The notes under the pieces are model-generated. The model made no database searches. It was given only the letters and a program-made list of their open reading frames with translations, and had not been told where the DNA came from. A stretch of 64,000 nt of DNA, taken from Deltaproteobacteria bacterium (GTDB lineage Bacteria > Bdellovibrionota_C > UBA2361 > JAGFJO01). Below, piece after piece: positions 2,660-30,815 of this stretch. A program made the position numbers and the translations under genes. The stretch is from NCBI GenBank assembly GCA_024102635.1, contig JAGFJO010000136.1:17133-81132 (forward strand). The letters run 5' to 3'. The first letter of the stretch is position 1; every line of letters starts with the position of its first letter.

Positions 2660-2675
2660 CGCAGATCAATTCTTA

Positions 2676-2693
2676 GCTGAGAGGATTTGAACC
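2676..2693 (-). repeat. Inverted copy of the tRNA T-arm/acceptor segment
   Basis: 'gctgagaggatttgaacc' is the exact reverse complement of 2601-2618 ('ggttcaaatcctctcagc'). The flanks do not fold into a tRNA. Confidence 0.85.
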
Positions 2694-2718
2694 CAAAAGA
2701 TAGGGCAAATCCGAAGGA
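2690..2718 (+). repeat. 29-nt direct repeat, copy 1
   Basis: 'aacccaaaagatagggcaaatccgaagga' recurs identically at 2836-2864. Confidence 0.9.
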
Positions 2719-2751
2719 TTGCAAGCGAAGCGTGCAATCCTCTCAGCCCGA
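2716..2751 (+). repeat. tRNA 3'-end duplicate (att-like scar) preceded by an 8-bp hairpin
   Basis: Bases 2736-2751 ('aatcctctcagcccga') are an exact 16-nt copy of tRNA positions 2607-2622. They are preceded by the hairpin 'ggattgca'-agcgaagcg-'tgcaatcc', which mimics a T-arm. Confidence 0.8.
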
Positions 2752-2835
2752 CCAATTTCTCGATCAATTCTATTATTCAAGACAGCCGTCTCACGCTGGA
2801 ATTTGCTTGTCCCCCGAAGCCTTGGCGAAGGGGGA

Positions 2836-2864
2836 AACCCAAAAGATAGGGCAAATCCGAAGGA
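2836..2864 (+). repeat. 29-nt direct repeat, copy 2
   Basis: Identical to 2690-2718. Confidence 0.9.
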
Positions 2865-2937
2865 CGCCTTAACTTTTTAATCTTCCAGGAATTGGGGAAG
2901 AATTGACCTACTAGTCGAGCGTACGTCAGAAGAATAT

Positions 2938-3648
2938 TCAATCACCGTAGATACCTTCGAAGACGTCCTGATCCCAGTCCCATCCTTCGAGAAAATTAGA
3001 TATCCTTCTCACTGCATCATGTTTTCCGCGCAAATGTAGCTGCTCAGCCACTTTCCTGGCATATCGAGCTACCGGAGCGTGTAGAAACAGGGATCCCTTC
3101 GTCCTGAGAATCAACGCCATCAACTGATTCTCGTTTCCATAGTCAGCGCTGCAGGCCTCAAGTGTAAGTTTTATTACGTCGAATCGGCCTGCTTTCAACA
3201 AACGATCGAGCTGCTCATGAAGATTTACAAGTTCACTAGATGGATCGCCGGTCTCCGGGACAGCCCGCAGCGCCGCAATCAGCTCTGAATCAATTTTCGC
3301 TTCCGGGATATTGTACGGCTCCACGTCTATCTTCAATTCACCGAGGAGGGGATGCGATCTAACCTCCTTCCAGAGATCCCGAAGTCTTTCTGCCAAGGGC
3401 CATGCAACTAAAAAATCTTTTTTAAAGGCCAGTAATCTCGCGTCCTGCTCTTTGGTTAAGTCGGCGCGAGCTTCCGCTATTACATGTGCAGCACGGCGTG
3501 GGCTAAGAGGGGCGGGGTGAACAGTTGGGACTTCAATATCAGTAAACGCCTGCAACAGATCCCCGTCACCTCCTAAGTGTCCCTTAATCTCTCTTGCTAA
3601 AGCTGAAGCGCGTTCAACAATTGAGCGAGGTTTATCTAATTGATGCAT
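2938..3648 (-). CDS. Hypothetical protein (orphan)
   Basis: 236-aa ORF, helical and charged in composition, with no motif I recognise. It is divergent from the 491-aa ORF. Confidence 0.5.
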   Translation of the reverse strand: MHQLDKPRSIVERASALAREIKGHLGGDGDLLQAFTDIEVPTVHPAPLSPRRAAHVIAEARADLTKEQDARLLAFKKDFLVAWPLAERLRDLWKEVRSHPLLGELKIDVEPYNIPEAKIDSELIAALRAVPETGDPSSELVNLHEQLDRLLKAGRFDVIKLTLEACSADYGNENQLMALILRTKGSLFLHAPVARYARKVAEQLHLRGKHDAVRRISNFLEGWDWDQDVFEGIYGD

Positions 3649-3926
3649 AGTGATACTTAAGTTTGCTTAAATCTTTATAATTATTCAGCGGCAAATTCAA
3701 TATAAATACCTCTTTCCTGCATCAGGATCGAACCGGCTGTAAGATGATAGAAGGAGGCTTTACACGCGGCGCGATAAGTCAGTTCAATTGCCTTAACTGG
3801 CATCACTAGTTGAAACTTAGAGAAGTAATTGATTCATGATTACTTGAATCTCATTAAGAGGTTATCCGGCTGAAATAGGTCATGCCTCGCCTGAAGCCTC
3901 TCAAGATGGAGTAAGAATGGTTTTGT

Positions 3927-5402
3927 TTGTATTATTCCGGGATGAGCCCTTCACAGGATCAAAATGAGCCCAACCGCCCTTCGGAGCGGGCAGTCCCGGC
4001 TACATCGCACTTTTACGGCGCTAGTTCCATTTTCATTCCTGGCGCCGAGCGGGTGCCTCTATCTCTGTTGGGCACCTTGCGCGATGGCATGCCCCGTTCT
4101 GAGATTCGGCGCGGTGTGATCGACACTTTGGGTGGAAATAAGCTTGTATATACGGAAGTTGCGCTCCGCTTACAGGCCGAAGACATTCACGAAAAAGGAG
4201 GGCATAAAATCCTCTCCGACCTCGCTCGAACTAATTACACGCCGCGAACAAAGCAGTTTGTAAGAGGACTGGCATCGATAAGAGGCACCTCCGGCATTGA
4301 AACCGAACTTAATCAGAATGAATCGGGAGAGAACACTTCCCTTACACTCCTTCAGCGTATACATGGGGAGGTTTTCGATTGGCACCCGCAGGTAATGATA
4401 GCCGCTTTGGCGGAGCTTTACGATCTTGCAGATCAATACTTTCAAGCTAAGCTGCGGCGTGATGCCAGCGAGCTTTTCGGCCTTAAAAATAAAGAAGACC
4501 CGTCGCTCGAAGTCCGTACTCAGCATGGAAGCTATTACATTCCACTCGCCGGAACCATACCGCACACGCGCACTCCGTATTCAAAACTTTTACCGCAAGA
4601 GGTGCAGGTTAATATTCCAGCTGCGGTGATACATCCGGCTAACGGTGACCGAATACTAAGACAACTTGATATGGAGCCTGAGCATCTGGCAACTCTTCAC
4701 GCACTTTTCGAGGGACTGCCGCTTTCCTCTCAGGAACAGATCCAAGTGAGAGTCGGCGGACATAGAACCGCTAACAATTATAAGAATGCCTTCCTCAGGA
4801 TCAGCTTTCATCACTCTGCGTCCTTGGGTGAATTTGATGTTGACAGTGAACGGCGGGCTTTCGCCATGAACGCCGTAGCAACTTCACTACAGTATATTGA
4901 GGACAATGTTCCTGGAATGAGCTGGGTTGACCGGCAGGTTCAAAAGATATTGAAGCAGCAGCAAGCCCCCGCGACACTTTCTGACCTGTTCGACACCACG
5001 CTTCTCAAGGACAAGTTATACGTTCCGCCAAAGTGGCGTGATTTCGAGAACCCCCGCCCTTTTACCCCGGTTGAAGAGAGCGGATTTCACGGTTGTATTA
5101 GAATGTTCCCTGTAAATCATCATCCTGTCTTGAAAGGCGGGGACTCACGCGATTACTTTGTCCGGACACTGAATGACTCGCCGGCTGCCGTTAGTGGAGG
5201 GCTTGTTATTACCTTCGTTAATTTTGAAACTCCAACAGACCTGCTCGCCGAAGGATACTGGAGAATTGACGTAGAATGGAACGATGAAGAATCACGACAG
5301 CACAATTTTCTAATGCTGCAGCAATTCTTAGAAGATTACTATCTCACGCTTCGAAGCGGACTGCCGGTTGATGAGCTAAATATCCGCAGGGTAGACGATT
5401 AA
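3927..5402 (+). CDS. Hypothetical protein (orphan)
   Basis: 491-aa ORF, soluble in composition, with no signal peptide or known motif. The track start is TTG at 3927 and the first ATG is at 3942. Confidence 0.55.
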   Translation: MYYSGMSPSQDQNEPNRPSERAVPATSHFYGASSIFIPGAERVPLSLLGTLRDGMPRSEIRRGVIDTLGGNKLVYTEVALRLQAEDIHEKGGHKILSDLARTNYTPRTKQFVRGLASIRGTSGIETELNQNESGENTSLTLLQRIHGEVFDWHPQVMIAALAELYDLADQYFQAKLRRDASELFGLKNKEDPSLEVRTQHGSYYIPLAGTIPHTRTPYSKLLPQEVQVNIPAAVIHPANGDRILRQLDMEPEHLATLHALFEGLPLSSQEQIQVRVGGHRTANNYKNAFLRISFHHSASLGEFDVDSERRAFAMNAVATSLQYIEDNVPGMSWVDRQVQKILKQQQAPATLSDLFDTTLLKDKLYVPPKWRDFENPRPFTPVEESGFHGCIRMFPVNHHPVLKGGDSRDYFVRTLNDSPAAVSGGLVITFVNFETPTDLLAEGYWRIDVEWNDEESRQHNFLMLQQFLEDYYLTLRSGLPVDELNIRRVDD

Positions 5403-5424
5403 ACGCCCGTTTCATGGCCAGCCG

Positions 5425-6327
5425 TCAGGCGTTGGAAGCACGTGATGAGGTGGTCAGTTTATCTGGTGCAGACCGCACATGTTCCGGCACTCCATGCAGA
5501 TCCCAAACGAGGCCCAGGTACTGAAGTACTTTAAGTCCATAGTAGGTAAGGTCTATTTCCCACCAGTAAAATCCCTGCCGGGTTGAGCGCTGATAATAGT
5601 GGTGATTGTTGTGCCACCCTTCCCCAAGAGAGATAAGCGCGAGCCATAGGCTATTCTTTGACTCATCACCTGTTTTGTATCGCGCGCGGCCGAAGCGGTG
5701 CATAAGAGAATTGATTGAAAAGGTAGCATGGTAAAGAATTACAGTGCTGAGAAAGAAACCGATCCATAAGGTGGACCAACCGGCACTAAAGGCTGTGTGT
5801 ATTGATCCACCGTTCACAACCCCTCCCGTTATTGTCACTAAAGCACCAAGAAGGATGGGAGGAATTAGATAATAGCGGTTCAGCCAAACAAGTTCCGGAT
5901 ACTTTTGCAGGTCCTTAACCAGCTCAAACCGTGTCGGCTCATAATCAGGCACCATTATCCAGCCGACGTGCGAGTACCAGAATCCGAAGCGCTTCATTGA
6001 ATGAGGGTCCTTTTCAGTATCGCTGTACTTATGGTGGGTGCGGTGATTTGCGCTCCACCAGAGAACGCCCTTTTGAGCGCTTGTCTGTGCCATGAATGCA
6101 AGAACGAACTGGAAAAAGCGTGAGGTCTTGTATGTGCGGTGCGCAAAATAGCGGTGATACCCTGCGGTCACGAAGAACATGCGGACCAAGTAGAGTACGC
6201 CACAAACGATCCAATCGAAGCGGGTAGCTCCGGTATAGAGCGCGGCAAATGGTAATAAATGCACGAGCAGGAATCCGATCTGGCTCGCTGGCCGCACTTT
6301 GCTGGATCTCGAACTAATGGCCATCAC
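5425..6327 (-). CDS. Acyl-CoA (delta-9-type) fatty acid desaturase
   Basis: Three His boxes, 'HRYFAHR', 'HRTHHKYSD' and 'HNNHHYY', plus N-terminal TM helices. Confidence 0.9.
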   Translation of the reverse strand: MMAISSRSSKVRPASQIGFLLVHLLPFAALYTGATRFDWIVCGVLYLVRMFFVTAGYHRYFAHRTYKTSRFFQFVLAFMAQTSAQKGVLWWSANHRTHHKYSDTEKDPHSMKRFGFWYSHVGWIMVPDYEPTRFELVKDLQKYPELVWLNRYYLIPPILLGALVTITGGVVNGGSIHTAFSAGWSTLWIGFFLSTVILYHATFSINSLMHRFGRARYKTGDESKNSLWLALISLGEGWHNNHHYYQRSTRQGFYWWEIDLTYYGLKVLQYLGLVWDLHGVPEHVRSAPDKLTTSSRASNA

Positions 6328-7300: not shown

Positions 7301-8079
7301 TGAGTGTGATGAATATGCGCGTGGTTCGGGTGCTCGTGGGAGTGGTGCTGATGCGCGAGATGCATCATGAAAGATAGCAGTCCTGTAAAAATTAGAATAA
7401 GCGCTGTTAACCGCGGGAAGGATGCCGCTAGCCGTCCTGAAAGAAATCGGGTTGCAGCTCCGAGCGCCGCCATTGCAGGCAGTGTGCCGAGCCAAAAACA
7501 GACCATTATCAGCAGAGCAGCACTAACATCAGCACTTCCCAGGCATAGCGCTACAAACACATATAACCACCCACACGGGAGCAAAGTAGTGACAAGTCCT
7601 ATCGCGTACGGCTTTAGCGCTCCTCTGCCTTGCAGGATCGGCTTGGCGAATGAACTTACAAGCGTTGCTGCCCGCTTGTGGACGCCTTCAAAAAAACCGG
7701 CGCGTCCTTTCACAAGCTGGAAGATTCCCACGGATACTAAAGATACCGCCACCAGCAAGGAAGAAATATGGGTTGCGCCGGAGATGATATCGAATTTCTG
7801 TCCGAGAAGGGCGGCGCTAGCGCCAAGAAACATGTAGGTGGTTAAGCGGCCGAGGTTATAAAGAATATGAGGCATGATAGTACCGGAGGAATTGTGGCTG
7901 TAGATAGCGACGAATCCGCCGCACATGCCTATGCAATGCGGGCTTCCGAGCAGGCTGGCCATCAGAACCGGGATGGCAGCGATGGTTTCAGGGGTAATCA
8001 CAGCCCGATCAGTATGCGCGCCGGTGATGAGGTAGGCAATACGTCCGCCGCAGCTGTTCTGCCGAACGCATGCAAGCAC
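7297..8079 (-). CDS. TauE/SafE-DsbD_2-like membrane protein with a His-rich tail (accessory gene of cbb3 clusters)
   Basis: 'SPHCIGMCGGF' and 'LLPCGWLY' motifs, multiple TM helices, and the C-terminus 'HQHHSHEHPNHAHIHHTH'. The start is uncertain. Met at 7962 would avoid an overlap with ccoI. Confidence 0.75.
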   Translation of the reverse strand: MLACVRQNSCGGRIAYLITGAHTDRAVITPETIAAIPVLMASLLGSPHCIGMCGGFVAIYSHNSSGTIMPHILYNLGRLTTYMFLGASAALLGQKFDIISGATHISSLLVAVSLVSVGIFQLVKGRAGFFEGVHKRAATLVSSFAKPILQGRGALKPYAIGLVTTLLPCGWLYVFVALCLGSADVSAALLIMVCFWLGTLPAMAALGAATRFLSGRLAASFPRLTALILIFTGLLSFMMHLAHQHHSHEHPNHAHIHHTH

Positions 8080-10500
8080 TGCGGGCAGCGGCTTTACACC
8101 TCTAAAGAGCTCGATTGCGGGTTCTGCTGCAACGGATGCAGCGCCGCATACTCACTCATTAACGGGCTTGGTTTGGGATACTACTACTGTCTTCGCGATA
8201 GTGCGGGCGAGCGCCAGACCATCAGAAAGACCGCTGCTGACTCTCAGTTCAATCACTTCGATGGCGCTGAGTTCAGGGCGCGTTTCGTACGAGAACTCTC
8301 CGGCTCTCAGAGCCGCATAGACTTTCAGTGCAACGCTGTACATTGCAGCGCGTGTGTTTGGCTCCTAGAGAAACTGCCTGAGGTACTCCCCGGCGTGGAC
8401 CAAGTCCGAGTGGACCTGGCGCGGGCAAAGATAGCGGTGTGGTTCGATCCATCGAAGATTGATTTAAGCACTCTCGGCAGAACGCTTGCCGGCCTCGGTT
8501 ACGATCCGCATCCGATAGCGAGCCGCTCCACGGCCTTTAGTGATCAAGCAGCCGATGTCACCTTTGCCCTACAGATCGGCGTAGCAGCGTTCTGTTCGAT
8601 GAATGTCATGCTGCTTTTTATCGGAAGATACCAAGGACTTTTCAGTGGGATGGAAGAACAGTACGCCGGTTTCTTCTCTTGGGTCTCGCTGGCCCTGGCA
8701 GTTCCTGCTGTTACCTTCTCAGCGCTGCCATTTTATCGCACCTCTATTGGCGCGCTTAGGCTGAAGAGATTTCATATCGATCTTCCGATCTCAATCGCTA
8801 TCGTGGGCGGATTTCTCTCAAGTGCCGTAAACACCGCGCTCGGCCGCAGTGAGATATATTACGATACTGTTACAGCACTGATATTTCTTCTGCTTCTTGG
8901 AAGATGGTTCCAGCGGCGCGGGATGAAGAAAGTTGCTTTGGCTTCAGAGATGCTGTACGCGATTGCGCCGCTCTCGGCGATAAAAATTACACATGAAGGA
9001 GCTCAAGAGGTGTTCGTCGAAGCGCTTAGAAGCGGCGATACCATTAAGGTTCCAAATGGAGCGAGAATACCAGCTGACGCGATACTCCTTTCAGGGGATG
9101 CGATTATAAACAATGCTCTAATTAGCGGAGAGAGCGCCCCCTGCAAGGTGAGCCGCGGCAACGAAGTATACTGCGGAGCGCTAAACGCCGGTCCGGAGTT
9201 CACCGCACAAGTCACCGCCGTTGCGGCACACTCCCGGATCGGGAATATTCTGCAAGGCATTGAGTCCGCTTCAGTAAGAGATAGCAAGACAGCATCATTT
9301 ACCGACAAGGTTGCGCAGTACTTTGTTGCCGGCGTTCTAGCGCTCTCGGTTCTTACCTTTCTTCTCTTTATCGGTGAAGGGATGGCCCCGGCTCTTGACC
9401 GTGTCTTTGCGCTTTTAATTGTTAGCTGCCCGTGCGCACTAGGGATCGCCACTCCCATCGTAATGAGTTTAGCTAACGCCCGCGCCGCAAGGGCGGGTAT
9501 ATTGCTAAAAAGCGGCTCTGCTTTGGAGCGCTGCGCGAATATAGAAAAGATCTACTTCGACAAGACCGGCACCCTGACGCATGGAAAGCCCGCTGTAGTT
9601 TTCAGCCACCTGCAAGGCGGTAGCGATGCCTCTCGGCAAAAGATCAATCATATCATTCAAAAGTTGGAGAGCGGGATCGAGCATCCTGCCGCCGAAGCGC
9701 TAAGAAATTTTGCCGGCAGCGGGCCAGTAGGACCAGATGAACCGGAGTTGGTCTCCCGCACCGTTATAAATGGTGCGGGTGTAATGGGGGAGTTCTCGGA
9801 CGGAGTGCGCCGGCGGATCGGCTCTCTTCGCTGGATTAAGAGCGAGGGTGTGAATCTAGAGCACCTGCAACTGATTCCGGACGCTCACACTTCCGGCTCG
9901 ACAATTGTTGCACTTTCAGAGGACAACCAGCTTAAAGCGCTTTTTGCATTACGCGACAGCGTTAGAGATGAAGCAGCCGAGGCAATAGCCGATCTAGCCC
10001 GGCGGGGAGTTACAAGCGGCATTATCTCGGGCGATTCAAGCGGGGTGGTTGGAACGGTCGGAGAGTCGATCGGACTCTCGCAAAGCGATCTTATCTCGGA
10101 AGCATCTCCTGAACAAAAAGCTGCAATCTTGACCGAGGCAGGAGAGGGCACAGCCCTGGTCGGCGACGGAGTTAATGACGCGCTCGCCCTAAGCAAGGCC
10201 GGGATAGGAATTGGGATCAGCGGAGGAGCGGAGGTCTGCCTTAAAGTTAGTGATGTTTTTCTTCTAAGGCCGGATCTCGGATTGATTACAGAGCTGATAG
10301 ATGGAGCAAGAAGCGCCCAAAGGCTCGTCAGGCGTCACTTAATCGTATCTCTTGTCTACAACGTATCAGCGGCAGTCCTTGCCATATCCGGATTCATAGG
10401 GCCGCTCGCTGCTGCTCTCATTATGCCGGCCAGTTCAATCTCGGTGATTCTCTCATCACTCTGGAATGCGCCGTTTAAAAAGGAGGCCGCATGGAAGTGA
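8014..10500 (+). CDS. ccoI: Copper-translocating P1B-type ATPase CcoI/FixI
   Basis: N-terminal metal-binding 'CKHCG...CGFCCNGCSAAY', 'SCPCALG' (CPC), 'FDKTGTLT' and 'GDGVNDA'. I chose the start at ATG 8014, because the track start at 7867 overlaps the divergent gene. Confidence 0.9.
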   Translation: MRAGDEVGNTSAAAVLPNACKHCGQRLYTSKELDCGFCCNGCSAAYSLINGLGLGYYYCLRDSAGERQTIRKTAADSQFNHFDGAEFRARFVRELSGSQSRIDFQCNAVHCSACVWLLEKLPEVLPGVDQVRVDLARAKIAVWFDPSKIDLSTLGRTLAGLGYDPHPIASRSTAFSDQAADVTFALQIGVAAFCSMNVMLLFIGRYQGLFSGMEEQYAGFFSWVSLALAVPAVTFSALPFYRTSIGALRLKRFHIDLPISIAIVGGFLSSAVNTALGRSEIYYDTVTALIFLLLLGRWFQRRGMKKVALASEMLYAIAPLSAIKITHEGAQEVFVEALRSGDTIKVPNGARIPADAILLSGDAIINNALISGESAPCKVSRGNEVYCGALNAGPEFTAQVTAVAAHSRIGNILQGIESASVRDSKTASFTDKVAQYFVAGVLALSVLTFLLFIGEGMAPALDRVFALLIVSCPCALGIATPIVMSLANARAARAGILLKSGSALERCANIEKIYFDKTGTLTHGKPAVVFSHLQGGSDASRQKINHIIQKLESGIEHPAAEALRNFAGSGPVGPDEPELVSRTVINGAGVMGEFSDGVRRRIGSLRWIKSEGVNLEHLQLIPDAHTSGSTIVALSEDNQLKALFALRDSVRDEAAEAIADLARRGVTSGIISGDSSGVVGTVGESIGLSQSDLISEASPEQKAAILTEAGEGTALVGDGVNDALALSKAGIGIGISGGAEVCLKVSDVFLLRPDLGLITELIDGARSAQRLVRRHLIVSLVYNVSAAVLAISGFIGPLAAALIMPASSISVILSSLWNAPFKKEAAWK

Positions 10501-10646
10501 TCTTTATTCTGCTTCCGCTATCACTGGCGCTAGGAGGCGTATTTCTATTGGCATACTTTTGGGCGGCCCGTTCAGGCCAGTTTGAGGACCTTGAGACTCC
10601 TGCCGTGCGAATACTGCCGGATGAGGAACGAGAAACAGATTTGTAA
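10491..10646 (+). CDS. ccoS: cbb3 oxidase maturation protein CcoS/FixS (51 aa, below the ORF-track cutoff)
   Basis: My own translation is '[51 protein letters not shown]', which carries the CcoS hallmark 'W....SGQF.DLE.PA.RIL.D'. It overlaps the ccoI stop, and its own stop overlaps the ccoNO ATG (TAATG). Confidence 0.85.
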
Positions 10647-12802
10647 TGGAGGGTTTCGTGAACAAGAATCTAGAAAAGTTTGCCTACGACGACAAAATAG
10701 TCCGCTACTTTGTCTTGGCTACAGTTTTATGGGGGATTGTCGGCATGCTGGCCGGATTGCTCGCGGCGCTACAGCTTGCCCTGCCCGAACTTAATTTTGG
10801 GCTGCCTTGGTTGACGTTCGGAAGACTCCGTCCGCTTCACACTAACGCCGTGATCTTTGCCTTCGCGGGCAACACAATCTTTGCCGGGGTATACTATTCA
10901 ACTCAGCGCCTCTGCAAAGCCCGGATGTTCAGCGACGCCCTAAGTAAGTTCCACTTTTGGGGATGGCAGCTGATTATCGTCGCCGCAGCCATAACACTGC
11001 TGAGCGGGATAACTGTCTCAAAAGAATACGCCGAGCTGGAGTGGCCGATAGACATAGCAATTGCCGTGGTTTGGGTGGCTTTCGGCGTGAACTTTTTCGG
11101 CACTCTAATTAGAAGACGGGAGCAGCACATCTATGTGGCTCTATGGTTTTATATCGCTACCATCATAACAGTTGCGCTGCTTCATATCGTAAACTCGCTC
11201 GCAATTCCGGTCTCCTTGTTTAAGAGCTACTCTGTCTTTGCAGGAGTCCAAGACGGTTTGGTTCAGTGGTGGTACGGGCACAATGCGGTAGCTTTTTTCC
11301 TTACCACCCCGTTTTTGGGCCTAATGTATTACTTTATGCCGAAGGCCGCCGAGCGCCCGGTTTACTCTTACAGGCTCTCTATCATTCATTTCTGGTCATT
11401 GATTTTTCTCTACATCTGGGCCGGACCACATCATCTTCTTAATACCTCTCTTCCGGAATGGGCACAGACTGTCGGCATGCTTTTCTCGGTAATGCTTATT
11501 GCACCATCCTGGGGTGGGATGATCAACGGCCTTCTAACTCTGCGCGGCGCATGGGATAAACTCCGCACTGATGCGGTTCTTAAGTTCCTAGTGGTCGGAA
11601 TCACCTTCTACGGCATGGCGACCTTCGAGGGTCCTATGATGTCCATCCGCTCCATCAATGCGCTCTCTCACTACACAGACTACACCATAGGACATGTGCA
11701 CGGCGGCGCGCTCGGATGGAACGGCTTTATAGCCTTCGGCATGATCTACTACCTTATGCCGCGGCTTTGGAAGGTGCCGATGTATAGCTCGCGGCTCATG
11801 ATGGTGCATTTTTGGACGGCAACCATCGGCATCGTTCTTTACATTACCTCTATGTGGACCGCCGGAGTCACTCAGGGCCTGATGTGGAGAGAGTTTAACG
11901 AACAAGGGATGCTGCAGTACCCAGATTTTATCGAGACCGTAATAAAACTTAAACCTTTCTACTGGGTGCGGGCGCTCGGCGGGGCTCTTTATCTTTTTGG
12001 AACGTTGATTGCTGCTTACAACATGGTGAAGACCATTGCCGCCGCTAGAGCTAAAGGTGCGGATCTCTCCGATACCCCGGCAAGTGCAGTGCGCTTCAGT
12101 GTTGTCGATGCTACCAAAGCACAAAGCACATGGCATCAGAGGCTGGAGGGGCGGCCCGTAATGTTTTCTGTACTAACCCTCGTGGCAGTTACGATAGGGG
12201 GAATGGTTGAGATCGTGCCGATGCTCGCAATAGCTAGCAACATACCTACCATTAAATCCGTTAAGCCATATACGCCGCTGGAGCTGGAAGGGCGGGATAT
12301 CTATATCCGCGAAGGTTGTTACACCTGTCACTCACAAATGGTGCGCCCATTCAGAGACGAAGTAATTCGGTACGGCGAGTACTCGAAGAGCGGCGAATTC
12401 GTGTATGACCATCCATTCCAATTCGGCTCGAAGCGCACAGGGCCCGATCTGCACCGCGTGGGAGGAAAGTATCCGCACCTCTGGCACTACCGCCATATGC
12501 TCGACCCTACCACCATTAGCGCCGGCTCAATAATGCCGCCTTATCCATGGCTCTTTACTGGCGAACTCGACACCAGCACAACTGTAAAGAAACTTGAAGT
12601 GATGAAACGGCTAGGGGTGCCCTACAGTGAAGAAGAAATTCGCCATGGGAGAGCGCTTGTTGAGGCGCAGGCTACAAAGATCGTAGATGAGCTAATCGCC
12701 CAGGGCCTTAGGCGTGAAGAAGGCCTTGAGAAAAAAGAGATTATCGCTCTTATTGCGTATCTTCAACGGCTAGGGAGCGACATCAAAGGAGAGGTAAAAT
12801 GA
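10646..12802 (+). CDS. ccoNO: Fused cbb3-type cytochrome c oxidase subunits I and II (CcoN-CcoO)
   Basis: 718 aa. The N-part is a haem-copper oxidase with 12 or more TM helices ('[11 protein letters not shown]', '[10 protein letters not shown]'). The C-part is CcoO with '[11 protein letters not shown]' haem c and '[11 protein letters not shown]'. Confidence 0.92.
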
Positions 12803-16866: not shown

Positions 16867-18126
16867 TTATAGCGCGATAATCGAATATCTACGGATATTA
16901 TCTAGAAGCTCATCTTTCTTCGAGACGCTAACGGTGCAAGCACCTGCGTGAGGGTGACAAGCGTCGGAAAAGCCGCCAGCCTGAGCTGCGGCTTTTGGAA
17001 GAATCTCCGCAACACTAGGCCTCTCGCCGCGCTTAATTGAAGAGAGGAGCTTCGCATCAACCCGAACCGATACTTTAAGATCATCAAGCTTTATAGGCCC
17101 AAGTCCGGGAATCATGGGCGAAATGGGTTGGAATCCGACCAGATATTTTCCGCCCGGAGCGAGGCCCTCGCTTATAAGCCGCTCACATATAAGGCCGACG
17201 GTCTTGACGCCGTAGCCTATAAATCGATCCTCTGTCTCGAAAGCAGCTATGTTGCCAGATTCTGTAAAAGTCACATCTTTGCTGAAAGCCTGATAGTCTT
17301 TTTCGAACTGGTCAAGATACTGCCGGGCGGCAAAGACAAAGGGCTCCGAAAACCCCTGCTGAATACCTTTGATGGCAATATCAGGTCCGCCCTTCAGATA
17401 CCCGAAAGAGCCGAGCGCATCGACGAACCGGGTGACAAGCTGCGCTTCCTTCCGTCCGCCGGTTTCAATCCAGTAATTACTGTCGTACCCGAAAGCGCCT
17501 AGCCCTTTGTACTTTTCAAATACTGCGCCGTTTACTCCATAAAGGAGCCCGCGCCGGTCAAACATCTTGTCTCCCAAGGCACCGAGCAGCGCGGCGCTGC
17601 TTAGGTCGGTATTATAGTCGTGAAGCGCCATGCTGAATATAAAGCAGATTACACTGGATGAGCACTCGCCTCCCTCTAGGCCGCTCGAAGTACAATTTAG
17701 CAGATGAATGTTTGTATCATTTGATGGCGTTATTGAGTGATGATCCAAGACAAAGACAGGGGAACCGTTCACATTGAGGCGGCTAATCTCAGGGAGCATT
17801 CCCGAGGCAAAATCAGCAAACAGGAATAGAGAGGTTGCATCAAGCTCCTTGAAAAGCCTATCCAGCACTGCCGGATAAGGCTTTTCCAGGGCATACCCTG
17901 AGTACGGCACCTGCGCTCGCTCGAACGTTTTAAACAGTATGGCTGCCGAGCTTAGCCCGTCGCAGTCGTTGTGATGCAGTACCACCACCCGGCTTTGTCG
18001 CGCATCCAAAAAAGTCCGAGTGACGCGCGCAACCTGCTCTTCAAACCGCCTAATTGCGCTCACGGCGTCACTACCTCCAATCCGCTTACGTCCCCTCTCA
18101 GCACCCGCTCTCTCAGATGGAGCCAT
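16867..18126 (-). CDS. DHH/DHHA1 family phosphoesterase
   Basis: 'VLHHNDCDGLSSAAIL' and 'VFVLDHH' motifs. GTG at 18063 gives a GTGA overlap with the stop of the upstream kinase gene and is the more likely start. Confidence 0.7.
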   Translation of the reverse strand: MAPSERAGAERGRKRIGGSDAVSAIRRFEEQVARVTRTFLDARQSRVVVLHHNDCDGLSSAAILFKTFERAQVPYSGYALEKPYPAVLDRLFKELDATSLFLFADFASGMLPEISRLNVNGSPVFVLDHHSITPSNDTNIHLLNCTSSGLEGGECSSSVICFIFSMALHDYNTDLSSAALLGALGDKMFDRRGLLYGVNGAVFEKYKGLGAFGYDSNYWIETGGRKEAQLVTRFVDALGSFGYLKGGPDIAIKGIQQGFSEPFVFAARQYLDQFEKDYQAFSKDVTFTESGNIAAFETEDRFIGYGVKTVGLICERLISEGLAPGGKYLVGFQPISPMIPGLGPIKLDDLKVSVRVDAKLLSSIKRGERPSVAEILPKAAAQAGGFSDACHPHAGACTVSVSKKDELLDNIRRYSIIAL

Positions 18127-21731: not shown

Positions 21732-22580
21732 TTGAAGTTGTTTAGATATAAAAGGAGCGGCGCCACTTCTCCCGGCATCATGATTGAAGGCAGGCACTTT
21801 GATGTTTCGGATAGCGGCTTTGATTATGATCCGGATTTTTTCTCTGCTGGGGGAAGCGCGCTGCTTAAGGAGTGGTTTCAAAAGAATCGCTCGAGTTGCC
21901 GTGAAATTACCGGCTCAATTCACTTCGACTCCTGTATTACAAGGCCGGGTAAAATAGTTTGTATCGGGCTTAACTTCCGCGATCATGCTCTTGAGACCGG
22001 CGCTAAGATCCCCGCGGAGCCGGTTATATTTATGAAAGCACCTTCAGCGCTTTGCGGCGTCTCGGATGATCTTGTGCTGCCCAGAAATTCTGAGAAGACC
22101 GATTGGGAGGTGGAGTTTTCATTTGTAATAGGGACAAAGGGAGCTTACGTGGCCGCTGATTCCGCACTTGATCACGTAGCGGGATTCGCTCTCTTTAATG
22201 ACTATAGTGAAAGGCACTTCCAGAAGGAGCGAGGCGGGCAGTGGACCAAAGGAAAGAGTTGTGACACCTTCGCGCCTATCGGCCCTTACCTTGTAACGGC
22301 AGAAGAGCTTCGGTACCCTCGGCCACTTTCAATGTGGCTTAAAGTCAACGGAGAGACTATGCAGAGCTCGAGTACGGCGGAGATGATATTCGACGTGCCT
22401 TATCTCATCAGCTACATAACTCAGTTTATGTCACTTCTCCCTGGGGATATCGTCACGACCGGGACACCGGCAGGTGTAGGGCTTGCACGTGACCGATTTT
22501 TACGCGACGGCGATAAAGTTGAGTATGGTATTGAAGGATTAGGCGAAGCGAGCCAGGTTGTTAGATCAACAGAACGTTAG
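21732..22580 (+). CDS. Fumarylacetoacetate hydrolase (FAH) family protein
   Basis: 'KIVCIGLNFRDHA' and 'GDIVTTGTPAGVG'. Confidence 0.85.
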   Translation: MKLFRYKRSGATSPGIMIEGRHFDVSDSGFDYDPDFFSAGGSALLKEWFQKNRSSCREITGSIHFDSCITRPGKIVCIGLNFRDHALETGAKIPAEPVIFMKAPSALCGVSDDLVLPRNSEKTDWEVEFSFVIGTKGAYVAADSALDHVAGFALFNDYSERHFQKERGGQWTKGKSCDTFAPIGPYLVTAEELRYPRPLSMWLKVNGETMQSSSTAEMIFDVPYLISYITQFMSLLPGDIVTTGTPAGVGLARDRFLRDGDKVEYGIEGLGEASQVVRSTER

Positions 22581-22660: not shown

Positions 22661-22696
22661 AAATAATATCGCGAGGTCTCCCTCGCGATATTATTT
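22661..22696. terminator. Perfect 16-bp hairpin between convergent genes (bidirectional terminator)
   Basis: 'AAATAATATCGCGAGG' TCTC 'CCTCGCGATATTATTT'. A/T runs flank both sides. Confidence 0.75.
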
Positions 22697-22778
22697 CTCA
22701 GATGATGGATCCACGCCGTCTATTCGATAGCCTAATAAACTATCAACCTTACAACGGAGAAGGACGGCGATTCTTACG

Positions 22779-23042
22779 CTAGGCTATATCGCGACCCATC
22801 ACGGTCTTGCGGCCCGACTTTCTGGCGCTCTCGATACCGCCATTGATAGCTTCCACTACCTTACGTGTAAGAGCATCAATGCAGCACTGGCTGGTATTTA
22901 GACCTGCCCGTGATCGAACCAGTTTCTTGACCTTAGACACAACCACCAATGTCTCCGCGTCGGACGTGTCAGTTACGACCGATGAAGCGACAGCAGTCTC
23001 TGCTGACTGGATTTCACTACTGTTATCCATAGGCACCTCCAA
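22779..23042 (-). CDS. Histone-fold (DUF1931-like singlet) DNA-binding protein with an N-terminal tail
   Basis: 'LVVVSKVKKLVRSRAGLNTSQCCIDALTRKVVEAINGGIESARKSGRKTVMGRDIA' aligns by eye to the alpha1-L1-alpha2-L2 region of archaeal HMfB ('...IKLARHAGRKTIKAEDI...'). A 30-aa acidic, Ser/Thr-rich N-terminal extension precedes it. Confidence 0.7.
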   Translation of the reverse strand: MEVPMDNSSEIQSAETAVASSVVTDTSDAETLVVVSKVKKLVRSRAGLNTSQCCIDALTRKVVEAINGGIESARKSGRKTVMGRDIA

Positions 23043-23310
23043 AAGGTTTTGTTCGAGGCTTTGGGGAGCAATGGCAAAACCATCGCTCCTTTAGACGTTC
23101 GAGACGATATCATTAAATATATCGATAGCAACCACATTACAAACTATTTCGGGCCACAATCGAGCGAAAGGCTATCAGTTTGATATCACTTTGATAATTG
23201 CATACTTGAACAGCTCTATATTGATTCTAATAGGCAAATTAAGAGGGTCTATAAGAAATCTTAACCGTTGGGCATATGCCGGCAATCTAATTATGTATTA
23301 GGTTTAGACT

Positions 23311-23787
23311 ATGAAAAAAGCACTTCTACAGCTCTTAGTGATCCTTGGCCTTGCAGCTATTGACTGTGAGGGAGCGCACGCCGCCCGTCAGTATCGCTGT
23401 AACGGTATGATTCAATATCGCCCCTGTCTTGCCGAGTCAGCTACTCCCCGGGCCGGCTTTCGCGCTCTTGAACAGGCTCAAAGAAAGGCCATAATTTCGG
23501 CTAGACACGGAAGCGCTGTCCCTGCCACGGCAAGTAATTTCACATTCGCAAAAATTGTTAAAGCATCCTACAAGCGCTTGTCGAGCGTTTCCGGGCAGTG
23601 GCGCGGAATAGTGGAAGGAAACGGGAATATCAAGCTGACGCTTCACATCATAAGAAACGGCGCTATTGAATCGACACGGTTTATGGGGCAGATTGCGCTC
23701 CGCAATAAGAAGACCTCCTTCAATTTTGTAAGTGCTCCGCCTGCGGGAAAAGGTTGGACATATACAATTATCGCCGCAGCATCTTAG
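23311..23787 (+). CDS. Secreted hypothetical protein
   Basis: Signal peptide 'MKKALLQLLVILGLAAIDCEGAHA'. No known motif. Confidence 0.55.
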   Translation: MKKALLQLLVILGLAAIDCEGAHAARQYRCNGMIQYRPCLAESATPRAGFRALEQAQRKAIISARHGSAVPATASNFTFAKIVKASYKRLSSVSGQWRGIVEGNGNIKLTLHIIRNGAIESTRFMGQIALRNKKTSFNFVSAPPAGKGWTYTIIAAAS

Positions 23788-25866: not shown

Positions 25867-28800
25867 ATGGTTGTAAGTGCTGCTTCCCATAATCAGAAGC
25901 TATTTCTCTTTCTCCGAAGGTTCGCTCCTCCCTCCATAGTAGAGAAAGGAATATCTCTTGCCCAACTGGGGTGTGTCACCGAGACAAGCAAATCCGGAAG
26001 CATTGTATCAGGATGTGTCCGCGATCAGGAAGAGCTCGTTTATAATCCATCCTTGGAGTTTATTTCGCAGAAAGACGTCCTTGCAGCATGCAGTTGCTGC
26101 AGCCGTGAGGAGATGCATGAACAGTGGTGTAGTCACGCCGTGGCTCTCCTGTGGCGCGCTACCGATCTCGGATTTTTCGAAAGCAACAGCGGGTTCGCAG
26201 CCCAAGAGTCCACGTTTCGCTTCAACATAAGTTCTCCCCAAGAGGTTGCAAACGTACTGGCCGAGTTGGGCCGCCAGGAAAATGAAGCTCCCGCACTCTC
26301 GCTGATAACTCCAGAAGTTTCGATTTATCTTGATCTGAACAGCGACAGACTCGGTGTTAGGCTGCTTTTTGACGGCGAAAGCCAAGGTCCGGCTCTGTTT
26401 GAATCGATCAGCCAGGCGTCCAGCCGCGCTTTAGATAACTTACTCTTACAGCTTCTAGATGAGCACGGAAGTTGGGACGATATTCAGCAGCTATGGTATG
26501 TGAACTCCAGCTCGGGAATTGAGAAGATACTGGGCCTCATTCAAGAGTATGAACACGCTTACCTGCAATCGAGCGGCGGTAAAATCCGATTTGACCACCG
26601 GCCAATAGGCGCCCGAGTCATATTGAACTGGAGCTCGAGCGGCCTGGAACTCAGCATGGAGTGGCTCCTTCCTGATGGGAAGGCGCTGCCTAAAGAACAA
26701 GAGCTATTGGGTACTGGCCCTTATTGGACCTGTATCGACTCTACGGTATATAGGCTCTCTCCGGTCGCAAGCCGTATCGCCGCACTTTTTGGATATGCGC
26801 CTAGAATTACTTTTTCACGCGCACAGTCAGGGCCGGTGTTGGAGGCTTTGCAGTCCATCACTTCGGACGTCGGGACCGTTATCGTGAAGAATCCCGCCTT
26901 GCAGCCGGAAACCCAGGTCTGTGCGCCACTCCCGGTGCTGGATCTTCAGCTCAGAGACACCGCACCGGAGCATTTCGATTCATCACAGACCATATACCTT
27001 AACGCCAAGCTGGAATTCGACTATCCCTCACCGCCTGCCAAGCGTAATTTGGTTTATCTGCCTGACCGCGGCATGGAGCGGGAATATGTGGGCGAGCTGC
27101 ATAAATTGGGGTTTCAAACGACCGCCGAACGAAACGTGTATCAGGTGTCTGGAGATGCCGCTCTAGATCTTATCGAGGCCGGTGAAAAGGCATTTTCCCG
27201 CAATTGGACGGTTAATGGGCTCGACACTTTGCGCAGCAGCATCCGCTTTTCGGATCTCTCAATCAACCTTTCCGTGGGCAGAGGCGCCAATGCGGATAAG
27301 AAGAGTAAATCGGCCGGAGCCCTCGACTGGTTCGATTGTCATGTTTCCCTTATACGTAATAACGCCAATATTCCAATCAGCACTCTATTCAAAAGCGCGA
27401 GAGGCGACAACGATCGCTGGATCTGCCTCGATAATGGTTCTTACGCGCGAGTTCCCGGTGGAGGCCTTAGCTACCTTAAAACCACACTGGGTGTAATTGA
27501 TCCTAACTTCCGCCTTAGCAACACCATTAAAGCCCGGCTTAACGTAGCTCAAACGGTGAGTTTGAGCCGGATAGAGGAGTCCGGTTTTAACCTGACAATC
27601 GGATCCGATGTTGAAGCTCTAGCTGATAAGTTCAAGAACTTTAAGAGTATAAAAAGCGTTAAGGCGCCCAAATCGTTTCACGGTAAGTTGCGTCACTACC
27701 AAGAAGACGGTGTCAGCTGGCTGAACTTTTTGATGGAGTTCGAGTTGGGCGGGATTTTAGCCGATGAAATGGGGTTGGGCAAAACCGTTCAAGCGCTAGC
27801 TTTTCTACAATTTCTAAAAGGAAGCGCAAAAGGCTCAAAGGGCAAGCCTGCATTGATAATTGCGCCTACATCAGTCATCACCAACTGGTGCTACGAAGCG
27901 AAGCGCTTTACACCTGAACTTAAAGTGCTGCTGCTTCACGGCCCGGAGCGCAAGTCGCAGTTTCAGTCGATCCCGGAATATGACGTCGTCATAACTTCTT
28001 ATGCACTGCTGCGGATTGACCGTTACGACTTGGAAAAATACGAGTTTTTATACTGCATATTGGACGAGGCTCAGAACATAAAAAACGCACAGGCTGCGAC
28101 CACCAAAGCAGCGAAGGCTATTCGTGCCCGCCACCGCTTAGCCATGACGGGCACTCCGACCGAGAATCGTCCGATGGAGCTTTGGTCTATAATGGATTTC
28201 TTGATGCCCGGCTACCTCGGATCTCTTGAGTTTTTCAGACAGTATATCGAGAAGCCCATTTTGGAAGGCGGCCCCGGAGTACAAGTGGCGCGCTTTCTCA
28301 ACGCGAAAACACGTCCATTCATTTTAAGGCGCACAAAAGCCGAGGTTGAAAGAGATCTTCCGCCGAAGATCGAGTCCGTACTGCACGTGGAGATGACTCC
28401 TTCGCAGCGCCAGCTTTACGGGCAGATTTTGGCTGAAGTGCGGCCAAAAGTTTTTGAAGCCGTTAGCAAAAAAGGGATTCGCGGAGCCAGTGTTTCAATA
28501 CTAGCCGCTCTGCTGCGCTTGCGTCAGGTTTGCAACCATCCGAATTCCATCGAGTCGCTTAGAGAACTTCCCGGCTTTGACTCGGGCAAATTCAATCTTT
28601 TACAGGAGCTTTTAGAAGAGGCTTTAGACAGCGGTAGAAAAATTCTTCTGTTCAGCCAGTTCAAGGATATGCTGGCGTTGATACGCCAGTGGCTAGCAAG
28701 CAAACAGGTAGAGTACCTCTACCTCGATGGAGGAACAAAGGAGCGTCAACCTCTAATAGACCGGTTCAACGGCGACGAGTCGATACGGCTTTTTCTCATC

Positions 28801-29112
28801 AGCCTGAAGGCTGGCGGTACCGGTTTAAATCTCGCCTCGGCTGATACCGTTATAATATACGACCCATGGTGGAATCCCGCTGTTGAAAGCCAAGCTGTCG
28901 ATAGGGCCCATAGAATCGGTCAAAAGCGCACAGTCAACGTCTATCGGCTTGTGACTGAAAATTCCGTAGAGCAGAAAATAATGGAGCTTAAGAGCAAAAA
29001 ATCAAAGATCGTAGACGCTCTGATTAATGAGAACGGATTATCAACGGCCAAGCTTACTCAATCCGACCTGGAGAGTTTGTTTAGCGCATTCCCGGAATCG
29101 GGTGGTTTGTAG
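25867..29112 (+). CDS. SWIM zinc-finger SNF2 family helicase
   Basis: SWIM 'CSCCSREEMHEQWCSHAVALL', motif I 'LADEMGLGKT', motif II 'DEAQNIKN' and motif VI 'QAVDRAHRIGQKR'. Confidence 0.9.
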   Translation: MVVSAASHNQKLFLFLRRFAPPSIVEKGISLAQLGCVTETSKSGSIVSGCVRDQEELVYNPSLEFISQKDVLAACSCCSREEMHEQWCSHAVALLWRATDLGFFESNSGFAAQESTFRFNISSPQEVANVLAELGRQENEAPALSLITPEVSIYLDLNSDRLGVRLLFDGESQGPALFESISQASSRALDNLLLQLLDEHGSWDDIQQLWYVNSSSGIEKILGLIQEYEHAYLQSSGGKIRFDHRPIGARVILNWSSSGLELSMEWLLPDGKALPKEQELLGTGPYWTCIDSTVYRLSPVASRIAALFGYAPRITFSRAQSGPVLEALQSITSDVGTVIVKNPALQPETQVCAPLPVLDLQLRDTAPEHFDSSQTIYLNAKLEFDYPSPPAKRNLVYLPDRGMEREYVGELHKLGFQTTAERNVYQVSGDAALDLIEAGEKAFSRNWTVNGLDTLRSSIRFSDLSINLSVGRGANADKKSKSAGALDWFDCHVSLIRNNANIPISTLFKSARGDNDRWICLDNGSYARVPGGGLSYLKTTLGVIDPNFRLSNTIKARLNVAQTVSLSRIEESGFNLTIGSDVEALADKFKNFKSIKSVKAPKSFHGKLRHYQEDGVSWLNFLMEFELGGILADEMGLGKTVQALAFLQFLKGSAKGSKGKPALIIAPTSVITNWCYEAKRFTPELKVLLLHGPERKSQFQSIPEYDVVITSYALLRIDRYDLEKYEFLYCILDEAQNIKNAQAATTKAAKAIRARHRLAMTGTPTENRPMELWSIMDFLMPGYLGSLEFFRQYIEKPILEGGPGVQVARFLNAKTRPFILRRTKAEVERDLPPKIESVLHVEMTPSQRQLYGQILAEVRPKVFEAVSKKGIRGASVSILAALLRLRQVCNHPNSIESLRELPGFDSGKFNLLQELLEEALDSGRKILLFSQFKDMLALIRQWLASKQVEYLYLDGGTKERQPLIDRFNGDESIRLFLISLKAGGTGLNLASADTVIIYDPWWNPAVESQAVDRAHRIGQKRTVNVYRLVTENSVEQKIMELKSKKSKIVDALINENGLSTAKLTQSDLESLFSAFPESGGL

Positions 29113-30268: not shown

Positions 30269-30482
30269 ACTAGTCTATAAACTACTAATTATTTGAATAA
30301 GTTACAAGATAACCAGCGAATCTTAAATCCGCCACCCCACGGCCAGCGTCCTAATAGCGGAGCATTTATTGAAGCAATGTAAATGCTTGTCTTAACTCGA
30401 ATACTAGGTTAGTAGAAAGAGTAAGTTTTTTGATTACCAACATGCAAGCTATTAACGCTATTTTTTAGGCTTGGGAGTTCTA

Positions 30483-30815
30483 ATGACTAATTCACGTTAC
30501 TGTCTCACTAAGGCGGACCTGGCAGACTCCATTTATGAGGCGCTGCCGATCGACAAGCAGAAAGCTGCGCAGATCGTAGAGGACTATATCGAGATCATTA
30601 AGGAAGCCCTTGAGAAGTACGGCAAAGTTATGCTCTCCGGATTCGGCTCTTACGAGGTTAAGTCGAAGCCTCCTCGCCGCGGCCGCAACCCTCAAACTGG
30701 TGATTCTATAATTCTCCGCGCACGGCGAGTTGTTAAATTCAAGCCCAGTCAGTTACTTAGAAAGGCAATCAACGGCCAGGCCATCAGTGAGGGCGACGAG
30801 GACGACGTCGGCTAG
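30483..30815 (+). CDS. Integration host factor/HU family DNA-binding protein
   Basis: 'LTKADLADSIYE', 'LSGFGSYEVKSKPPRRGRNPQTGDSI' and 'VVKFKPSQLLRKAI'. I chose the start at ATG 30483. Confidence 0.88.
   Translation: MTNSRYCLTKADLADSIYEALPIDKQKAAQIVEDYIEIIKEALEKYGKVMLSGFGSYEVKSKPPRRGRNPQTGDSIILRARRVVKFKPSQLLRKAINGQAISEGDEDDVG

Follow-up and report, generated by a model that had tools for sequence, protein, structure and literature searches.

A predicted HBb-class bacterial histone with a short acidic N-terminal tail in a Deltaproteobacteria bacterium contig

The 64,000-nucleotide stretch analyzed here (the window) covers positions 17,133 to 81,132 of contig JAGFJO010000136.1 from a Deltaproteobacteria bacterium (assembly GCA_024102635.1), and coordinates below are those of the window unless a different locus is named. 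A short gene on its minus strand is predicted to encode a single-fold histone related to HBb (Bd0055) of Bdellovibrio bacteriovorus, preceded by an acidic, Ser/Thr-rich tail. The open reading frame (ORF) given in the initial annotation, 22779–23042 on the minus strand, is present with the translation quoted there, and an identical protein was called on a second public contig (L083). The question left by that annotation concerned the start codon. The listed TTG at 23042 sits within TTGGAGGTGCCTATG and overlaps a Shine-Dalgarno sequence, GGAGG (23036–23040, minus strand, read from the sequence), which is separated by a 5-nt spacer from an ATG at 23030. The TTG was rejected because it lies inside the Shine-Dalgarno sequence, and the ATG is further supported by the GGAGG-N5/6-ATG layout kept at the orthologous loci L078, L079, and L080. 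The true start is almost certainly ATG 23030, and the ORF list and the sequence together give a coding sequence of 22779–23030 (minus strand, including the stop codon at 22779–22781) for a protein of 83 amino acids (MDNSSEIQ...GRDIA). The open frame reaches just 16 codons above the TTG, and the sequence beyond is intergenic up to a divergent gene, so there is no hidden upstream domain.

The histone gene is convergent with a FAA-hydrolase gene (21732–22580, plus strand) and divergent from an ORF of 158 amino acids (23311–23787, plus strand), with approximately 280 bp of intergenic DNA upstream of it. Given this orientation of its neighbors the gene is monocistronic, as originally claimed. The 158-residue ORF has a signal-peptide-like N-terminus and no Pfam match, and its divergent pairing with the histone gene is kept in L078, L080, and L083 and partly in L079. 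Within the upstream intergenic DNA, a 32-nt block, TTGTAATGTGGTTGCTATCGATATATTTAATG (23111–23142, minus strand), contains TTGTAA followed by TATATT or TATTTA. This block is near-identical in the window, L078, and L079, whereas the flanking intergenic DNA is approximately 60% identical. A sigma-70 consensus scan did not call the block; its conservation and layout suggest that it may act as a promoter. A 5′ untranslated region (UTR) of approximately 80 nt would lie between the block and the start codon (region 23031–23142, minus strand). The sole consensus pairing found by RNAalifold in four orthologous 5′ UTRs is a 4-bp CUCC/GGAG helix (anti-Shine-Dalgarno with Shine-Dalgarno) without covariation, a weak hint that the Shine-Dalgarno sequence might be sequestered, and insufficient for claiming a regulatory RNA in the 5′ UTR.

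Downstream, a perfect 16-bp hairpin with a GAGA loop (22661–22696, minus strand) lies between the convergent histone and FAA-hydrolase genes. This inverted repeat begins 82 nt past the stop codon, has arms at 22661–22676 and 22681–22696 with a 4-nt loop, and is included in the minimum-free-energy fold. Because the stem is not followed by a T-run, a consensus terminator scan did not call it. Strong 3′ stem-loops, unrelated in sequence, are present at all orthologous loci, and the one at L081 is a canonical stem followed by U6; the hairpin in the window is thus a probable (bidirectional) transcription terminator. The terminator hairpin of the initial annotation is therefore real as a hairpin and plausible as a terminator, although the consensus scan does not recognize it. 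A second, weaker stem-loop (22724–22746, minus strand; 10 pairs including G-U) begins 32 nt past the stop codon, upstream of the 16-bp hairpin.

Codons 25–83 (22782–22958, minus strand) correspond to a histone fold with a truncated α3, as delimited by an AlphaFold2 (AF2) model, a Foldseek search, and an alignment with HBb. In a phmmer search against all PDB sequences, HBb/Bd0055 (8CMP/8FVX) ranked first with an E value of 3e-12, well outside any chance resemblance, and residues 25–82 align without gaps to HBb residues 2–59 with 51% identity (57–58 residues). Lower-ranked matches were HLp, a face-to-face (FtF) histone of Leptospira, then HmvA, HTkC, and archaeal histones. A profile built from the tailed clade described below returned the PDB matches HBb (7e-22), HLp (2e-9), HTkC (1e-7), and archaeal histones (1e-3 to 3e-5). 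HBb is thus the best solved relative in both the single-sequence and the clade-profile search, in a subgroup that is itself defined by sequence clustering with HBb. The AF2 model, built from 69 homologues, has block-mean pLDDT (predicted local distance difference test) values of approximately 84–92 over residues 31–83 and places helices at residues 19–42 and 48–71 and a single turn at 79–81, with the protein ending at residue 83. The parts of the fold can be assigned as α1 (~28–42), L1 (43–47), α2 (48–71), L2 (72–78), and a single-turn α3 (79–81). Foldseek against the PDB placed five HBb chains on top (9F0E/9EZZ/8CMP/8FVX), followed by HLp and HTkC; the HBb matches have target-normalised TM (template modelling) scores of 0.75–0.80, root-mean-square deviations of 1.9–2.3 Å, and 49–51% identity. 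These searches and the model bear out the initial reading of a bacterial histone-fold singlet akin to the abundant Bdellovibrio histone. An almost absent α3 had been singled out as a special feature of this protein. Instead, it is the defining trait of its family, the "α3 histones", in which α3 has 3–4 residues and α2 is 4–5 residues short (Schwab et al., PMC11390915), and all 95 homologues end 1–12 residues past the RD motif. The ORF also stops 2 residues, not 5, after GRD, since GRDIA are the last five residues.

The residues through which HBb binds DNA are conserved in the query. Bd0055/HBb is an abundant, dimeric protein that binds DNA via L1/L2, K12, and R57 (Hocher et al., Hu et al.; PMC10627809, PMC11317129). 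Its DNA contacts are K12, T23, S24, K52, T53, and R57, and R51 and D58 form a clamp (PMC11317129). With 23 added to the HBb numbering, these contacts correspond to K35, T46, S47, K75, T76, and R80 of the query, all conserved, and the R51-D58 clamp corresponds to R74-D81, also conserved. The RKTxxxD/RD clamp of the query reads R74-K75-T76-V-M-G-R80-D81, in which R74, K75, T76, R80, and D81 are invariant in 69 homologues. The Ser-Lys motif and lysines of α1 (HBb S9-K10, K12, and K13) are S32-K33, K35, and K36; among the homologues, S32 and K35 never vary, and at least 90% keep K33. The query and HBb (8CMP, 8FVX, 8FW7, 9EZZ, and 9F0E) thus share a single fold, an α2 one turn short, a one-turn α3, the S-K motif, K12, T23/S24, R51-K52-T53, R57, and D58. 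They differ in that the query alone carries a 24-residue acidic Ser/Thr-rich tail, in that its fold has a net charge of +7 compared with +3 in HBb, with the acidic HBb residues E17, E26, E36, and D49 replaced, and in reading MGRD where HBb has MARD. They also differ at HBb A25-E26, where the query has two adjacent cysteines at the N-terminal end of α2 (Q-C-C, codons 48–50, 22881–22889). Of these two HBb residues, A25 makes a contact with the DNA backbone. QC[C/A] occurs in 39 of 43 acidic-tail folds, 24 of 42 ZZ folds, and 5 of 42 tailless folds, and a redox or metal role for the cysteines is conceivable.

Within the α3 histones, a "bacterial dimer" subgroup has been defined by similarity to HBb (PMC11390915), and we consider it very nearly certain that the protein is an α3-truncated histone of this HBb class. 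By homology, it would form a homodimer and bind or bend DNA. Several other assignments were rejected. The initial annotation had called the protein DUF1931-type, which is wrong: no DUF1931 match was found with Pfam at E ≤ 10, and DUF1931 proteins are doublets, whose hits were removed by Hocher et al. before bacterial singlets were defined (PMC10627809). DUF1931 (PF09123; Aquifex Aq_328, 1R4V; Thermus, 1WWI) belongs to the same histone-fold superfamily and has two folds per chain (pseudodimeric) without the DNA-binding residues, whereas the query is a singlet of one 59-residue fold that has them. A few relatives of the query match DUF1931 below threshold (8 of 33 clade members weakly, best E value 0.0047). 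Nucleosomal archaeal histones (HMfB/HTk-type) have a three-turn α3 and a full-length α2, which build the four-helix-bundle interface of the tetramer. This assignment was dismissed because α3 of the query is a single turn, α2 is 4 residues shorter, and the NCBIfam archaea_histone model gives 18.4 bits where 50 are required; alignment with the archaeal histone HmvA needs a 4-residue gap within α2 of the query, whereas that with HBb needs none. The FtF histones HLp (Leptospira perolatii, 9QT0-2) and HTkC (Thermococcus kodakarensis, 9F2C) share the truncated α3, the short α2, the RD clamp, and a similar monomer fold (TM 0.74–0.78) at approximately 33–35% identity. The positions of the tetramerisation residues R48/N52 in the FtF logo are S68/S72 in the query, on an inferred mapping of the logo to HLp through its KRTESN alignment. 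Bacterial FtF histones often carry N-terminal tails, which are mostly positively charged (PMC11390915), whereas that of the query is negative. The ZZ histones (Bd3044; Haliangium D0LYE7), from the same phylum, come nearest in fold sequence (up to 69% identity, sharing NTSQCC...GRKTVMGRDI). Membership was nonetheless rejected: the query has no ZZ zinc finger (C4 + C2H2), no Cys or His in its tail, and no upstream coding sequence, and ZZ linkers are long, basic, and Pro-rich where the query tail is short and acidic.

A homologue search retrieved 300 clusters at E ≤ 1e-3, 45 of them at E ≤ 1e-10, among 1.84 billion representatives. The family is small and comprises tailless singlets of approximately 60 amino acids (HBb and many from Chlamydiota), ZZ-zinc-finger histones of 140–216 amino acids (many Bdellovibrionota metagenome-assembled genomes, MAGs), doublets of 126–136 amino acids (Bacteriovoracaceae), and singlets of 72–88 amino acids with acidic tails, represented by 35 distinct sequences of uncultured Bdellovibrionota/Oligoflexia. 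The tails of these 35 singlets have 13–30 residues, at most one Lys/Arg, a net charge of −2 to −6, and approximately 34% Ser/Thr; when pooled, their residues include T 21%, S 16%, A 13%, E 11%, and D 9%. Among GTDB species representatives, tailed singlets occur in four, all MAGs labelled Bdellovibrionota, Oligoflexia, or "Deltaproteobacteria". The folds of the tailed singlets are nearest to a "SQCC...MGRDI" subtype shared with ZZ histones (up to 69% identity), compared with 51% for HBb. An HBb-like histone is in itself no surprise in this phylum, as 67% of Bdellovibrionota genomes carry a Bd0055 homologue (PMC10627809). Most bacterial singlets are without tails (PMC10627809), and no description of acidic tails on histones of the bacterial dimer class was found in the literature searched. 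The new and modestly interesting part is therefore the tailed clade and the charge compensation described below.

The tail of the query occupies codons 1–24 (MDNSSEIQSAETAVASSVVTDTSD; 22959–23030, minus strand) and precedes the position of HBb's own N-terminus. It contains five acidic residues, no Lys or Arg, and Ser or Thr at 9 of 24 positions, with a net charge of −5. A signal or secretion peptide was rejected by eye, as the tail has no hydrophobic core and is net acidic. AF2 confidence is low here (pLDDT ~48–51 for residues 1–20 and ~65 for residues 21–30), and the tail is predicted to be disordered. Between the window and L078, whose proteins are 85% identical, 11 of the 14 nucleotide differences in the tail are third-position changes, and the tail has a pN/pS of 0.087, compared with 0.139 for the fold. 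Two further orthologue pairs gave tail values of 0.43 and 0.39, with 0.07–0.08 for the fold. Raw pN/pS is reported, as Jukes–Cantor-corrected dN/dS was not computable with synonymous sites saturated. Tail length differs between homologues with the reading frame kept. Since the ATG and Shine-Dalgarno sequence are conserved, the frame survives length changes, and all three orthologue pairs give a pN/pS below 1, translation of the tail is very probable. These substitution patterns show purifying selection acting on it. The N-terminal extension noted initially is thus translated, with a length of approximately 24 residues beyond the HBb N-terminus rather than approximately 30.

We also considered whether translation starts internally, at the TTG or GTG of codons 28/29, to give a tailless HBb-like product of approximately 55 amino acids. 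In the window, a GGAG does lie 3 nt before the TTG of codon 28 and 6 nt before the GTG of codon 29. These codons and the GGAG are missing in orthologues, however (L078 has CTA GTA and CGAG), whereas the upstream ATG and GGAGG are conserved. The largely synonymous, third-position differences in the tail also speak against an internal start, and the conserved E-T-L opening of α1 would be lost. An internal start is therefore very improbable.

The charge of the tail is coupled to that of the fold. Folds of the acidic-tail class carry a mean charge of +5.4, whereas the mean is +2.8 for tailless forms (Mann–Whitney p 1e-10) and +2.7 for ZZ histones whose folds belong to the same subtype (p 1e-9). 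The extra positive charge comes mainly from acidic residues lost at the equivalents of HBb E17, E36, and D49 and at the D of MDRD, and from a gained K57. The charges of tail and fold are anticorrelated, with a Spearman coefficient of −0.75 overall (n = 104) and −0.61 within the acidic-tail class. The relationship is retained in Felsenstein independent contrasts (r = −0.48, p 8e-7), 42 of which have opposite signs and 14 the same sign.

Our preferred reading, held with moderate confidence, is that the gene encodes a nucleoid-associated DNA-binding dimer of the HBb class whose acidic tail electrostatically modulates DNA binding; for the electrostatic mechanism of the tail taken separately, our support is tentative. 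By homology, a head-to-tail homodimer would contact the DNA backbone through its paired L1/L2 loops, K35 of α1, and R80 of α3, and would bend or coat DNA rather than wrap it into nucleosome-like particles. From the anatomy and the charge statistics, the 24-residue acidic disordered tail would leave the N-terminus of α1 on the DNA-binding face. There, this polyanion could compete, within the molecule or between dimers, for an unusually basic ridge, lowering or tuning DNA affinity and limiting the close packing of dimers. HMGB1 and similar proteins combine a basic DNA-binding module with a disordered polyacidic autoinhibitory tail that competes with DNA; this is an analogy only. These proteins are eukaryotic and have an unrelated fold and a C-terminal tail. 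A matching role has been proposed for archaeal coiled-coil (CC) histones, in which a disordered polyacidic tail is thought to occlude the DNA-binding α1 face as an intramolecular inhibitor (Schwab et al. 2024; PMC11390915). The CC histones differ in bridging DNA, in having a coiled-coil extension, and in belonging to another domain of life, and their tails are unrelated in sequence. The N-terminal exchange between dimers in the Bd0055 filament (PMC10627809) is also relevant here.

Several results weigh against this interpretation. The Pfam scan returned no family for the query even at E ≤ 10, and the NCBIfam scan returned archaea_histone only, below its threshold, so that the family assignment rests on the PDB sequence and profile searches and the AF2 model and not on family scans. 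The position of the tail in the AF2 model is uninformative at a pLDDT of approximately 50. The independent contrasts used a neighbor-joining tree built from the same 57-residue fold, and the charge anticorrelation could reflect selection on overall isoelectric point or solubility, not a direct interaction. Finally, the tail evolves approximately five times faster than the fold in two of the three orthologue pairs, and any constraint on it would thus be on composition.

A different view of the same HBb-class histone is that the tail is functionally near-neutral: a low-complexity stretch that is tolerated, or a "bristle" for solubility, without specific influence on how the protein binds DNA. 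Conservation of the tail sequence does not extend past close relatives, its length ranges from 13 to 30 residues, disorder is predicted, and pN/pS in the two faster pairs is 0.39–0.43, compared with 0.07–0.08 for the fold. A near-neutral tail is difficult to reconcile with a composition so tightly held over approximately 35 sequences (at most one Lys/Arg, −2 to −6, approximately 34% Ser/Thr), with a tail charge that tracks fold charge even after contrasts, and with the window/L078 pair, in which constraint on the tail equals that on the fold (0.087 and 0.139). We regard it as rather unlikely.

The tail might instead serve as a regulatory or interaction handle, either as a phosphorylation switch for a Hanks-type kinase or for recruiting a partner such as a nucleoid protein or a SNF2-family ATPase. 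Its Ser/Thr content (9 of 24 residues, with Thr and Ser making up 37% of the pooled tails) and a semi-conserved (S/T)D(T/S)(S/T)D-A-E-T stretch beside α1 in the closest relatives would suit such a role, and the gene order SNF2-PhoD-158-residue ORF-histone-FAA hydrolase is common to the window and L080, while in L026, L064, and L068 a SNF2 homologue immediately precedes a ZZ-histone gene. Ser/Thr richness is, however, common in disordered linkers, the gene has no linked kinase, phosphatase, or reader, and a SNF2 gene was within reach of the histone gene in none of 80 further metagenome loci. A handle of this kind is accordingly unlikely. The more specific proposal, a phospho- or partner-regulated switch gating DNA binding, possibly with the SNF2 ATPase as a primitive histone-remodeller pair, is decidedly improbable; if it were true, the clade would be the first bacterial histones with tail-based chromatin regulation.

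The SNF2-family ATPase of the window has 1081 amino acids (25867–29112, plus strand; Pfam SNF2-rel_dom, 6.5e-73), lies 2.8 kb from the histone gene, and contains a SWIM-like CxC...CxH motif, as judged by eye. At L080, where the SNF2 gene lies at 2675–5920 of that locus, the order of the five genes is kept and the histone is 62% identical. In L026 (1676–4639), L064, and L068 (1680–4646), a SNF2 homologue of 987–988 amino acids is followed, 33–55 nt after its end, by a ZZ-histone ORF in the same orientation, an arrangement that looks like an operon, and a SNF2 homologue is listed at L028 too. With no such linkage among the 80 further metagenome loci, the SNF2–histone link appears limited to a few lineages (real in two) and is a lead only.

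Another alternative keeps the histone fold and makes the protein a specialised regulator of low abundance, like the ZZ histone Bd3044, perhaps descended from a ZZ histone that lost its zinc finger. The fold is closer to ZZ-type folds (up to 69% identity) than to HBb (51%), the SQCC...MGRDI signatures are common to the query and ZZ-type folds, and expression of the B. bacteriovorus ZZ histone is weak (PMC11390915). Against such a role stand the strong Shine-Dalgarno sequence, the gene's own promoter-like block and terminator hairpin, and the intact DNA-contact residues. Furthermore, neither the window nor the four GTDB genomes carrying tailed singlets yielded a second HBb-type gene. Thus, a specialised regulator is an improbable alternative to the nucleoid-associated dimer.

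Bacterial histones were recognised only in 2023–2025, and their published tails, where present (FtF histones), are basic. The present finding points to an HBb-class clade with short polyacidic Ser/Thr-rich tails whose charge co-varies with that of the DNA-binding fold. If the preferred reading of the tail is true, a built-in electrostatic regulator would join the repertoire of bacterial chromatin proteins. An 83-residue protein with or without its first 24 residues is also a simple system for the effects of tails on histone–DNA binding outside eukaryotes.

Other observations concern relatives of the histone and the rest of the window. Genomic context differs between sub-clades of the tailed histones: in L164 and L165 (the loci of P0011 and P0023), which belong to another tailed sub-clade, the gene follows a conserved prfC (RF3)-DTW-TPR protein block. 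A protein of 3708 amino acids (P0275) has 14 weak matched stretches to query residues 41–70, in the α2 region, and may represent either an artefact of repeats or coiled coils or a protein with many histone folds. An Rfam scan of the whole window gave no match. The IHF/HU gene mentioned in the initial annotation was identified at 30471–30815 (plus strand; Pfam Bac_DNA_binding, E value 1e-28) and encodes an HU/IHF-family protein whose C-terminal end is acidic (EGDEDDVG). A classical nucleoid protein and a histone are thus present in one genome, as in B. bacteriovorus, the host of HBb. A fused cbb3-type oxidase CcoN-CcoO, with COX1 and FixO in one ORF of 718 amino acids, lies at 10646–12802 (plus strand), preceded by a heavy-metal P-type ATPase (7867–10500) and followed by FixG-like and other cco assembly genes. 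An uncultured, Bdellovibrionota/Oligoflexia-like host is indicated by the fused CcoNO, which is 72–83% identical to proteins of Oligoflexia, Bdellovibrionales, and "Proteobacteria" MAGs.

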